A stretch of DNA of 12,786 nucleotides from a virus (lineage: Duplodnaviria; Heunggongvirae; Uroviricota; Caudoviricetes): IMG/VR virus record IMGVR_UViG_641736225_000032. One strand, written 5' to 3'. Below are positions 3,001 to 6,000 of the stretch, one piece after another (the first letter of the stretch is position 1; the number at the start of each line of letters is the position of its first letter). The position numbers are program-made.

Positions 3001-6000
3001 CGAACATGGCTAAAGAACTGGCGATGGTCGAACGCACTGAACAGGGCCGCGCAATTCGCCAGTACTTCATCAAATGTGAAGAAGAGCTACACAAGGCAGC
3101 GCCGGAACGTGCCGCAGCTTTGCGCCGTGAACTGAAAGCGCGTGTCACCGTTGCCAGTTTTTTTAAGCCTATGTGCGCTGCGCGGGAGTTGTACCGCGCA
3201 GAGTTGGGAAAAGAGACTCATCAACACCACTACACCACAGAATCAAATATGCTGGCGCGTATCGTGCTGGGCGGCATGACGGCGAAACAATGGGCGCAGG
3301 CGAACGGCATCAAAGGAAAACCGCGTGACAGCATGAGCGTTATGCAGCTTGAACACCTTTCCTACCTTGACCAGAGCAATATCACGCTGATTGAGTTGGG
3401 TATGACTTACCAGCAGCGAAAAGCCGAATTAATCCGCCTTTCACAGCGCTGGCTGGCCCGTCGCATGGGAGAGCATGAACATGCCTGACATCCGCAACGC
3501 TGCCGCCCTGTACATCGACACGGCGGATACGTTCGCACAACTGAGCCTCAACCATTCTGATTACATGCACCATATCGTGAGCCATTTCGCCGCTGAGCGC
3601 ATGAAACACGTTAAGCATTATCAGAAGGAGGTTTTATTAAATTATCGCGCTGGTGGCCCTGTATGGCGCGAATATCCGCATGATGCAGGAATGGCAGGCA
3701 AAACAAAGGCGACCACGGAAGGGTCGCCAATGGAGATAAAGGAAATCAAGCGCATCACCAACTATGCCATGAGTGTAGCTGGTGGACAAGGCTATCAGCC
3801 AGGCGGTCGGTTTTTAGTGGCTTTTAACCGCCGTGGGTATTTCTCGACAAAATCTTCAAGGGCAAATCGTGTTGGCCTGGTGAGTGGCAGTGGATTAAGT
3901 AACAACCTCCTTTGCCGTTGTGCTTTTTCGCGCTGTCGCTCAAGTATGGATAATGCGATTTCCTGTAATTCTTCATTTGTCATTGTCTGTACCCGTAAAG
4001 CGGTGCGCTGTAGTACCTCATATCACAGCGCAGGTATTTTTTATGGTTGTAATTTGCGTGATGATTCAGGTCGCTTTGCGACACACTGCATAAACATAAA
4101 TAACGTGATGTTATTATGTGCTTTCAAAGAAAACGCAGGTATTTTTCGCACAAACTTCTCTCGCAACACATCCGACCACTTAAGCAAAAAAGCGGCATAT
4201 ACTGAGGCTATCCCTTATAAAACGGGGATCGGGATTGGCCTCCCGCTGGAGTTAGAGGCGATACACGACGCGCCAGCGTCTTTTTTTTTGTATCGGCGCA
4301 CACGCACACCTCAACAATGGTGGGCTGTATGGAACTTCCTTCGGGAAGGCTGGTTTCCTCTAACACCAGTAAGGCCAATTCCGTACAGTCCACCGCCAGC
4401 AAGATTGGCCTCTTGGGCGGTGGGTATAATCCCAAAGTCAGAGGAGCCTTTCACATGGCTGTATCCGCACGCCCTTACTTTGTCTGGCGCTTTATGCAGT
4501 GCCTGACAGACAGCATTGCAATATTCACCGTTACCGCTGCCACTGAGCGCGAAGCACGCGCCCGGCTGCCGCACGCACATCTGATTTTTGTCGCCCGTAT
4601 CCGTCAGGAGGTGACTCATGCTTAAAACCTTCCGCGTCTTTTCCCGTGCTGTTAACAAGCGCGGCCATACCATCGGCATCACACAGAACGTGAAGGCCGA
4701 AAACGTCCAGGCTGCAATCAGCACAGTAATTAACAAATCAGCTAAAGCCGGTTTATCCGGCGTAATTATCCACGCAGTTACATGTATTCAGGATGAGGAG
4801 TAATTCATGTGTGATTTTTCCGATATGACTGTTGATGAAGCAGCAAAAAGCGCAATGCAGGCAGAACTTATTTGTTCTCTGATGATGGGTAACACAGGTG
4901 GAATGACTGAGGGTGAGATTGAGTCATTGCTCGCCCTGATTAAGCAGCTTACAGGTAAGGCAGGTAGCTGGCTGATTGCTGCATCGGGTGATGATGCAAT
5001 ATGCGTCAATGACTGAATCCTTTGTTGTTCTGAATATCATGAAATTAAGGGGGTGCAGTAATGCAGCAAATAACACTGGCAGAAGCCTCACTGCAAGCGC
5101 AACAGGTCGAAGTAATCAGCCGCATGATTGAACGCAACCACGAAGAAATAGACGACCATAACCTTTCTGTTATTGCAGGACTTATCAAACAACTTTCCAG
5201 CAATGTGGCGGTGTGGTTAATGACGGAGGAAGAAAAACGCGGCGAACAATAACGGCTAAAAATAAACGGGAAATAAGGATTAAGACGACTCCTTCAGGAG
5301 ATTAATTCAATGGCATCAAAAAATACTGGCTTAACTGCCAGTAGCAAAACTCACCCCGAATTTATGTGCGGGGATATTTACCGCAATGAATACGGTAGCC
5401 ACATGACGATGATCAGCAGAGGTAAGAAATGAAAAGCGCACCGAACTTAAAAAAACAGCCTCGAGGGAAAAAACACGCCGATACGGAAGTGATTATTTTC
5501 GCTGGCAGTGATGCGTGGGCGCACGCGAAACAGTGGCTGGAGCAGGACGGAAAACTTGCCGGAGATAATATACCGCCCGTCGTGCTGGCTGATGAGCAAC
5601 TTAAAGATATTGGCAATCTGCAAATTGTACCCGACGGGCGCAAATCAGCGCGTATATACAAGGCCGGACACCTCGATCAGGTGATGGTCAAAGGCATAGG
5701 TCAGAAGCTGGCGGCGGCAGGCGTACAGGACGCAGACTATTACCCCGAAGGTATGCACCATAACGAGCGGCAGAACTGGCGTAACTATCTGGAGACTGAG
5801 CGCAAAAACATTTCTGACGGGCTGGTTATTGAGCTGCCTGTAAAGAAAAAAGAGCGGGGAAAAGGTGATGATGCCACATCACTGGCGCTAAACCAGATGG
5901 GGGCAAGCCAGCGCGGCGAAGTTCTTCTGGCACATTATGGCGGCGAACTGGCAATAAACGCCGACTCTGACACAGTGCATTATTACAACAGTGTTGTATG

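Follow-up and report, generated by a model that had tools for sequence, protein, structure and literature searches.

In phages P1 and P4, the immunity factor is a stable RNA of about 70–80 nt, which RNase P cuts out of a leader transcript. The immunity RNAs of P4 lie inside a translated open reading frame (ORF), eta, with kil nested in the same frame, and translation of eta suppresses immunity-specific termination (PMC10111431). P4-like satellites and gram-negative phage-inducible chromosomal islands (PICIs) have a layout with an integration zone, a Bro-network zone with the immunity RNAs, and a replication zone (PMC10111431). In the literature, PMC10111431 included, the IsrK RNA is equated with seqA and the C4 RNA with CI; the Salmonella authors link IsrK to seqA and STnc1160 to CI, and an Rfam-based list for Escherichia coli O157:H7 EDL933 already includes C4 and isrK. 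The system is a known one: both the homology of IsrK/C4 to seqA/CI and their presence in P4-like prophages, PICIs and enterohaemorrhagic E. coli (EHEC) are published. Here we analyze a 12,786-nt stretch of DNA from a virus of the Caudoviricetes (IMG/VR record IMGVR_UViG_641736225_000032; the whole stretch is referred to as the window). Very likely, the interval 3489–4617, upstream of the primase operon, is where a P4-like or PICI-like satellite island has its immunity region, for the maintenance of lysogeny; it is laid out as are the seqA–CI–seqC region of P4 and the a1b1–c4–a2b2–icd region of P1.

A sequence-only reading of the window had described this interval as about 1.1 kb of coding-poor sequence, and had proposed that it may hold an RNA-based switch analogous to that of P4 or a decayed gene. 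The sequence features it listed are all present, at or within 1–3 nt of the positions it gave. The P4 CI-like switch upstream of the primase operon was rightly suspected, and the relationship goes beyond analogy to homology (Rfam RF01695 and RF01394, and the P4 matches). Some 1.1 kb with the appearance of junk, elsewhere annotated as "ash family protein" pseudogenes or as hypothetical proteins of 295–550 amino acids (aa), is the RNA immunity switch of a P4-like or PICI-like satellite. At the sequence level, the identity of the RNA switch is secure, and the role ascribed below to the long open frame and the T-tract is a reasonable extension. The system is nothing new in kind, and is ordinary apart from its unusually long reading frame. 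The points of modest interest are an eta-like frame that is open despite neutral drift, embedded antisense small genes, a polymorphic T-tract, and a b specificity in common with a P1-like plasmid prophage of the same strain.

For convenience, related stretches are labeled as follows: L006, a sister island in E. coli O43 RM10042; L131, the island of strain JNEC-KY177; L005 and L007, remnants in iha islands; L132 and L133, draft assemblies; L003 and L004, related modules of a Shiga toxin (Stx) phage and a punavirus; and L134, positions 68838–72063 of NZ_CP027590.1, a P1-like plasmid of strain 2014C-3011.

Leader RNA and C4 RNA

The interval contains matches to two Rfam families over the full length of each model (Table 1). 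C4 (RF01695) reaches 73.8 bits, where the gathering score is 45 (model positions 1–87 of 87), and isrK (RF01394) reaches 52.1 bits, where it is 50 (model positions 1–77 of 77). P4 carries the same two families in the same order, with its CI RNA at 74.9 bits (C4) and its seqA leader at 60.8 bits (isrK).

The leader has the isrK architecture: the third hairpin is an intrinsic terminator with a U-tract, and the target sites b1 and a1 lie inside the match. The hairpin and T9 run that the sequence-only reading had taken for a terminator are, according to the Rfam match, the terminator of this leader. The -10-like hexamer TATACT is a candidate counterpart of the P4 promoter P_LE.

The minimum-energy fold of the C4 RNA (-40.0 kcal/mol for 4313–4400) is the family structure, with a closing stem, two inner hairpins, and an unpaired b′. 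The UUCG hairpin of the sequence-only reading is the first internal hairpin of C4, as placed by Rfam. In the family alignment of 27 sequences, 19 of the 26 predicted pairs show compensatory changes.

An "ash family protein" pseudogene annotated by the Prokaryotic Genome Annotation Pipeline (PGAP) and the Pfam match to Phage_ASH coincide exactly with the C4 RNA (window 4317–4400). The Pfam match (PF10554) is below its gathering score of 26, with 23.9 bits for ORF 4317–4625, and the matched residues 1–51 are the translated C4 region. Because the PGAP and Pfam matches fall on C4, the Ash protein family seems to arise, at least partly, from translating the C4/CI RNA gene conceptually in the frame of eta. 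In the sister island, two C4–icd modules with differing a′/b′ alleles stand in tandem (L006 5312–5399 and 5792–5880), and the second icd copy is annotated as frameshifted.

Table 1 Features of the interval and its immediate surroundings. Positions are those of the window.
Feature	Position	Strand	Evidence or remark
Long eta-like ORF	3481–4506 (341 codons), or from ATG 3475 (343 codons)	+	Stop-free 3433–4503
Terminator-like hairpin GGCGACC CUUCCGU GGUCGCC	Stem-loop 3728–3708, tail to 3698	-	
62-aa ORF, RefSeq WP_071827874.1	3795–3983	-	RefSeq-annotated; dN/dS
AT-rich spacer, 42% G+C	3984–4197	.	Holds the 13-nt repeat
Exact 13-nt repeat CGCAGGTATTTTT	4029–4041, 4134–4146		
TATACT, -10-like hexamer	4198–4203	+	7 nt 5′ of the predicted leader start; same position as P4 TATAGT
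IsrK/seqA-type leader RNA	4210–4286, to 4289 with T9	+	Rfam RF01394, terminator scan, inverted repeats I3 and I5
Leader 5′ hairpin	4210–4229	+	
b1 ATTGGCCT	4234–4241	+	In hairpin loop; pairs with b′
a1 GTTAGAGG	4251–4258	+	Pairs with a′
Intrinsic terminator	Hairpin GACGC-GCCA-GCGTC 4267–4280, then T9 4281–4289	+	
C4/CI-type antisense RNA	4313–4400	+	Rfam RF01695, minimum-energy fold
UUCG hairpin CTTCC-TTCG-GGAAG	4335–4348	+	First internal hairpin of C4
Second C4 hairpin	4349–4370, loop 4354–4365	+	Loop holds a′ (CCUCUAAC, 4357–4364)
b′ AGGCCAAU	4372–4379	+	Single-stranded in C4
Hairpin CCACCGCC ... GGCGGTGG	4390–4423	+	Exposes b2 in loop
b2 ATTGGCCT	4404–4411	+	In hairpin loop; pairs with b′
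TATAAT	4425–4430	+	Outside the switch
a2 GUCAGAGGAG / GTCAGAGGAG	4437–4446	+	Pairs with a′ at 9/10 positions
icd/kil-like gene, 56 aa	4455–4625	+	NF033153, RefSeq WP_000301063.1; first gene of the primase-directed operon

Target sites and their co-variation with C4

Exact 8-mer complements of a′ (a1) and of b′ (b1 and b2) are unique to the predicted sites in the 12.8-kb window, with ATTGGCCT found at 4234 and 4404 only. An unbiased repeat search also returned a1/a′, b1/b′, and b1/b2 (I3, I5, and D14). The a2 site includes the Shine-Dalgarno sequence GAGGAG, 8 nt 5′ of ATG 4455, and the a2/a′ duplex has an energy of -13.8 kcal/mol (z = -3.3). The sequence-only reading had suggested looking for short complementarity between a putative small RNA in the interval and sequences just upstream of 4618; such complementarity exists, is unique in the window, and co-varies across relatives, as follows.

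About 120 loci were taken from viral contigs by a pattern for the conserved C4 core. They comprise 99 distinct loci, with 33 a′ alleles and 18 b′ alleles in 45 combinations. We counted complements of at least 7 nt in cognate (n = 99) and non-cognate (n = 990) pairs. The a1 complement is found in 88/99 cognate pairs and 14/990 non-cognate pairs, and the a2 complement in 82/99 and 23/990, respectively. The corresponding counts are 99/99 and 86/990 for b1, and 92/99 and 7/990 for b2. In 76 of the 99 loci, the upstream targets are separated from C4 by a hairpin and a T-run that follows it. The sister island provides a natural experiment: L006 is nearly identical to the window over 3920–4236 and diverges exactly at the b1 loop, and its C4 alleles differ from those of the window and fit its own b1.

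Besides this island, strain 2014C-3011 has a P1-like plasmid prophage of 92 kb (NZ_CP027590.1, 68838–72063). The c4 module of the plasmid has the same b1 hairpin and the same b′ as the island, but a different a′, a1, and a2. The identical b1 hairpin and b′ indicate that half of the recognition specificity is common to the island and the co-resident phage, which could mean regulatory cross-talk between satellite and phage.

The Icd/Kil-like gene and comparison with known loci

The gene that follows matches NF033153 at 51.4 bits (cutoff 25), and the P4 Kil segment matches the same model at 76.1 bits. BLASTP gives no alignment between the Icd-like protein and P4 Kil, though both match NF033153. 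The ORF begins immediately after the downstream targets, as in the eta/kil arrangement of P4. In the JNEC-KY177 island, icd has a 96-nt deletion (L131 2760–2900, corresponding to window 4473–4568), and a different replication gene, encoding a DUF927 protein, replaces the primase downstream.

By architecture, the locus resembles P4. In both, b1 in a hairpin loop, a1, and a hairpin with a T-run are followed by b2 in a loop and by a2 over the Shine-Dalgarno sequence of an Icd-like ORF (Kil in P4); a long ORF begins where the upstream gene stops, on its stop codon, and traverses the RNAs; and the primase gene (alpha in P4) lies downstream of the immunity RNAs. However, blastn finds no DNA similarity of P4 to the window, and the two differ in their a′/b′ alleles. 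Terminator and C4 are about 107 nt apart in P4 and 23 nt apart here, and the upstream gene is vis/alpA in P4 and antA/AntB here.

By sequence, the closest known locus is immI of P1/P7. The punavirus immI is 79% identical over window 4218–4493, and P1-like plasmid prophages are 85% identical to the module, with the same C4 structure and identical b′ specificity. In both cases, an icd-like gene follows directly. A P1/P7-type ant gene 3′ of icd was not found; four small hypothetical genes and then the primase gene are present instead. The isrK–orf45–anrP locus of Gifsy-1 also has an isrK-scoring leader with an intrinsic terminator, then a C4-like RNA (STnc1160), and then a small ORF with a sequestered ribosome-binding site. 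It differs in being a lambdoid prophage locus that controls an antirepressor and indirectly AntQ, and trans-activation has been shown there. Stx phages carry the same RNA pair at about 76% identity, and one such record annotates both RNAs.

The long plus-strand reading frame

The long ORF starts at ATG 3481, within ATGCCTGA, where it overlaps the stop of the antA/AntB gene that precedes it. A Shine-Dalgarno-like GGGAGAG, read from the sequence, lies 8–14 nt 5′ of this ATG. The frame is open far beyond chance: 357 stop-free codons have an analytic P of 5 × 10^-8, and none of 3000 shuffles reaches that length. Its amino acid sequence, on the other hand, is unconstrained. In comparison with L132 (52 substitutions), the ratio of non-synonymous to synonymous substitution rates (dN/dS) is 0.99, compared with 0.05 for the end of the ant gene; in comparison with L006, there are 18 non-synonymous changes and 1 synonymous change. 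The composition is rich in Cys, Ser, Arg, and Phe, as expected for the antisense of a gene.

Neither the 343-aa ORF nor its first 106 aa gives a meaningful family in Pfam, PHROG, or NCBIfam, and the PHROG matches of the ORF are confined to the parts in which leader and C4 sequence is translated. Homologs of the N-terminal 130 aa are limited to E. coli, and blastn of window 3475–3792 against the phage collection gives no match. The sequence-only reading, which had doubted that the 343-aa ORF is a real protein, is borne out in that the protein sequence is neutral and without a family, but the openness of the frame and its resemblance to P4 eta speak against setting the ORF aside as noise. Similarly, "coding-poor" describes the unconstrained amino acids of the long ORF, but the interval also holds the first 163 nt of the Icd-like gene and a constrained 62-aa ORF on the minus strand.

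An intact, longer ORF spans the interval in homologous islands (550 and 450 aa in L006 and L131, respectively), and in L132 and L133 no stop interrupts the frame before the contig ends. Island variants have unrelated, interchangeable middle segments, yet the frame is still open. PGAP annotates the ORF in some strains, with lengths of 295, 450, and 550 aa. Among 104 distinct loci, the median length of the open frame over C4 is 186 codons in sense and 86 codons in antisense. In the leader, the window frame (HDAPASFF) is the P4 eta frame (YDAPRVFF); the eta/kil frame is the one that leads from ATG 4317 across C4 into icd. Because the frame is open, starts on the ant stop codon, is the eta frame in the leader, and stays open in the variants, the long ORF is best read as the putative counterpart of P4 eta. 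The sequence-only reading had held that an intact protein gene conserved across homologous elements would speak against a switch. Such an ORF exists, but the RNA switch survives the comparison, because the immunity RNAs of P4 also lie inside translated ORF eta.

The length of the T-tract (window 4281–4289) varies among near-identical modules: T9 in most, T8 in ATCC 43889 and OkiPb01717, and T7 in JNEC-KY177. The T8 alleles, seen in two genomes, could be homopolymer sequencing errors. In the survey of 99 loci, T7 is the norm. Each tract length sets the long ORF in a different frame, and a T7 or T10 tract would yield a single ORF of 380 or 381 aa that ends at 4625 with Icd. The nested eta/icd arrangement is present in L006 and in the T7 allele of L131, where one 450-aa "ash family protein" is annotated.

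It is quite unlikely, though conceivable, that the plus frame, which runs antisense to real small genes, stays open just for the passage of ribosomes rather than for its protein, and that the T-tract is a frame switch setting Eta–Icd fusion and read-through. In such a switch, slippage of RNA polymerase on the T9 tract may add one U and so join the 3481 ORF with the Ash/Icd frame; DNA tracts altered to T7 or T10 would likewise join them, and the leader terminator would also set the amount of Eta–Icd fusion and of read-through. Slippage has a precedent in the T9 site of Shigella mxiE.

A model for the switch and alternative explanations

From P4, P1, and Gifsy-1, we infer the following steps. 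A promoter just 5′ of 4210 would start the leader transcript. Most transcripts would end at the terminator (4267–4289), giving an IsrK/seqA-type RNA of about 80 nt with b1 and a1, and read-through transcripts would be processed to the stable C4/CI-type RNA. The a′ loop and the single-stranded b′ of C4 would pair with a2 and b2 of longer transcripts and mask the Shine-Dalgarno sequence of the icd/kil-like gene. This gene being untranslated, transcription would terminate ahead of the small genes and the primase gene, and the island would be quiescent. Pairing of b1/a1 with C4 would either reinforce early termination, as in the P4 model, or titrate C4 and activate the operon, as in the Gifsy-1 IsrK model. 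Upon induction, transcripts from an upstream promoter would be translated by ribosomes along the long ORF through the region, which would override termination.

Several points weigh against the assignment of the interval to an immunity region. The locus is known here from its sequence alone. The isrK match exceeds its gathering score by 2 bits only, and RF03163 (c4-a1b1 motif) is below its gathering score of 46.7, with 21.8 bits at 4197–4249; P4 itself is sub-threshold for RF03163 (44.1 bits), and the functional sites of the window are nevertheless present. A consensus promoter scan of 3300–4800 gives no site and no -35 match, so that no promoter is claimed beyond the -10-like hexamer. The pairing of a2 is imperfect, with one C-A mismatch. 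The ant-type gene (antA/AntB, 2640–3488) is upstream, whereas that of P1 is downstream of icd. In contrast to P4, the ORF start is separated from the leader by about 700 nt, comprising the antisense small gene, its terminator, and the AT-rich spacer. In the T9 allele, the long ORF ends at 4506, out of frame with icd because the tract is T9 rather than T7, whereas the P4 frames are nested; the eta-like arrangement may thus be decayed here. Finally, part of the openness of the plus frame can be a shadow of minus-strand ORFs, as synonymous resampling of these ORFs keeps the plus frame open in 15–37% of trials per ORF. A full shadow effect is rejected, because it leaves the non-genic segments and the whole length unexplained.

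Within an immunity region of this kind, it is possible, though less likely than not, that the Gifsy-1 IsrK logic dominates, with the leader acting in trans as an activator that pairs with the C4-like part of read-through transcripts and opens the ribosome-binding site of the small ORF, more than as a target for termination. The leader reaches the isrK gathering score, the minimum-energy fold of 4210–4460 pairs a1/b1 with a′/b′ in cis, like the inactive structure A in Salmonella, and the RNAs of that system are the ones related to seqA and CI by its authors. However, the module here precedes a replication operon, as does that of P4, rather than an antirepressor gene, and it is nearest to the punavirus c4–icd by sequence (79%) and to P4 by architecture. 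That the module is an inactive relic, with recognizable RNAs in a defective island where the switch controls nothing, is unlikely. The frameshift of the eta-like ORF relative to the norm (T9 here, T7 in most loci) would fit a relic, as would the duplications, frameshifted icd copies, or icd deletion in other variants and the related spacer sequence that persists as decayed remnants in iha islands; but the four target sites and both RNAs are intact, as are the primase, SSB, and other downstream genes, and the sequence is identical in many genomes, with the T9 form extending to O111:H8 strains (see below).

Readings without an RNA switch fare worse. A conventional folded protein of 343 aa (Eta or a Bro-network protein), whose amino acid sequence matters and to which the RNA motifs are secondary, would account for the very long stop-free frame, the Shine-Dalgarno-like sequence, the start overlapping the upstream stop, and the PGAP annotations. 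It is most unlikely given the neutral substitutions relative to L132 and L006, the lack of Pfam and NCBIfam matches, the PHROG matches only on translated leader and C4, the homologs limited to E. coli, the unrelated interchangeable middle segments, and the antisense-like composition. A decayed protein gene or a spacer with chance hairpins and no RNA function fits the low-complexity translation, but is hardly credible: two Rfam matches reach their gathering scores, loops and targets co-vary in 45 allele combinations, C4 pairs show compensatory changes, and the architecture is identical to that of P4, all of which already contradict it. The decayed-gene alternative of the sequence-only reading holds to the extent that the eta-like ORF is frameshifted here; the ORF still spans the terminator, C4, and both downstream targets.

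The perfect TATAAT reported by the sequence-only reading is indeed present, 25 nt 5′ of the icd start codon, and could in principle be an independent icd–primase promoter that bypasses the switch. This is highly improbable. The hexamer is no more frequent than chance predicts (3 copies in the window, 5.4 expected), has no -35 partner, and is replaced by unrelated sequence in L003, L004, L006, and P4, and a transcript from there would still include a2. TATAAT was rejected as a promoter on account of its chance frequency and lack of conservation.

Island setting and distribution

Window 3300–4800 is 100% identical to EHEC chromosomal islands, including that of O103:H2 strain 12009 and those of many O157:H7 strains. 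This query gives 395 matching records, of which 75 are at least 99% identical, and the 20 best-matching genomes are all 100% identical. A query of 4200–4460 with the T7 variant retrieves the T9 form also from O111:H8 strains. The exact island is found in O157:H7, O103:H2, and O111:H8 strains, and the module is widespread: a match to window 4190–4640 is present in 1301 of 5426 complete E. coli genomes.

The island adjoins yicC in strain 12009. From the integration side, the order is a tyrosine integrase gene, a hypothetical gene, a small helix-turn-helix (HTH) regulator gene, and the antA/AntB gene; in a sister island, this regulator resembles AlpA. After the interval come the Icd-like gene, four small genes, the primase gene (5429–7252), and SSB, ProQ/FinO, and PerC-like genes. 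The order of integrase, AlpA-like HTH regulator, AntA/Bro gene, immunity RNAs, primase, and SSB agrees with the published satellite layout (PMC10111431). PICIs and helper-embedded PICIs of that study likewise have a four-zone layout, with C4 and isrK matches in or beside the Bro-network gene (PMC10111431).

Dense substitutions in the 5′ third of the primase gene (window 5521–6140) set the window apart from the ATCC 43889 island, to which it is otherwise nearly identical, and indicate a recombination patch. The contigs of L132 and L133 both end inside the spacer, at the equivalent of window ~4030–4130, just 5′ of the leader RNA; these breaks suggest that the module is a repeat that short-read assemblers could not cross.

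The minus-strand gene and the spacer

On the minus strand, the 62-aa ORF appears to represent a genuine small gene. Its dN/dS is 0.31–0.36, the lowest among all six frames, and it is intact in four diverged copies, including those in L005, L006, and L007. Codon-position counts failed to separate plus-strand from minus-strand coding over 3798–3983, because the two frames have common third positions; the six-frame dN/dS resolved the question. The ORF has no Pfam, PHROG, or NCBIfam family, its homologs are in E. coli only, and tblastn against the phage collection gives no match.

Relatives have two or three such minus-strand ORFs of 57–103 aa in tandem (L005 4223–4942, L006 4352–4906, and L131 1850–2499), with a recurring ..RQRE.. 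/ ..F.LED.. pattern, all antisense to the long plus frame. They constitute an uncharacterized small-protein family restricted to E. coli islands, and the window copy looks like a deletion fusion of two tandem paralogs.

The stem-loop GGCGACC-N7-GGTCGCC noted by the sequence-only reading is present, but lies at 3708–3728 rather than 3709–3731, and is outside the switch. On the minus strand, it is followed by the tail UUUGUUUUGC / UUUGUUUUG. Five island variants, one of them only 83% identical here, show no change in stem or tail, and the hairpin fold of 3698–3728 has an energy of -15.3 kcal/mol (z = -3.75). We take this stem-loop to terminate transcription of the gene or genes on the minus strand.

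The AT-rich spacer probably holds divergent promoters. Its substitutions relative to L005 and L007 are without codon periodicity (18/20/12), and the L005/L007 spacer has frame-breaking indels of 2 nt and 1 nt. The 13-nt direct repeat of the sequence-only reading is exact and occurs just twice in the window; at least two hits with at most two mismatches occur in 12 of 200 shuffles. Only its second copy is kept in the 76%-identical relatives, and a role of the repeat as an operator is unsupported, with one copy conserved only. Both copies of another pair, CGTGATG (D7), are altered in L005. The iha-island remnants L005 and L007 contain a 76%-identical copy of window 3559–4191 without isrK or C4, and carry the small RNA Esr41 (RF02676) at L005 2749–2822 (108.6 bits) and L007 2746–2819 (103.4 bits).

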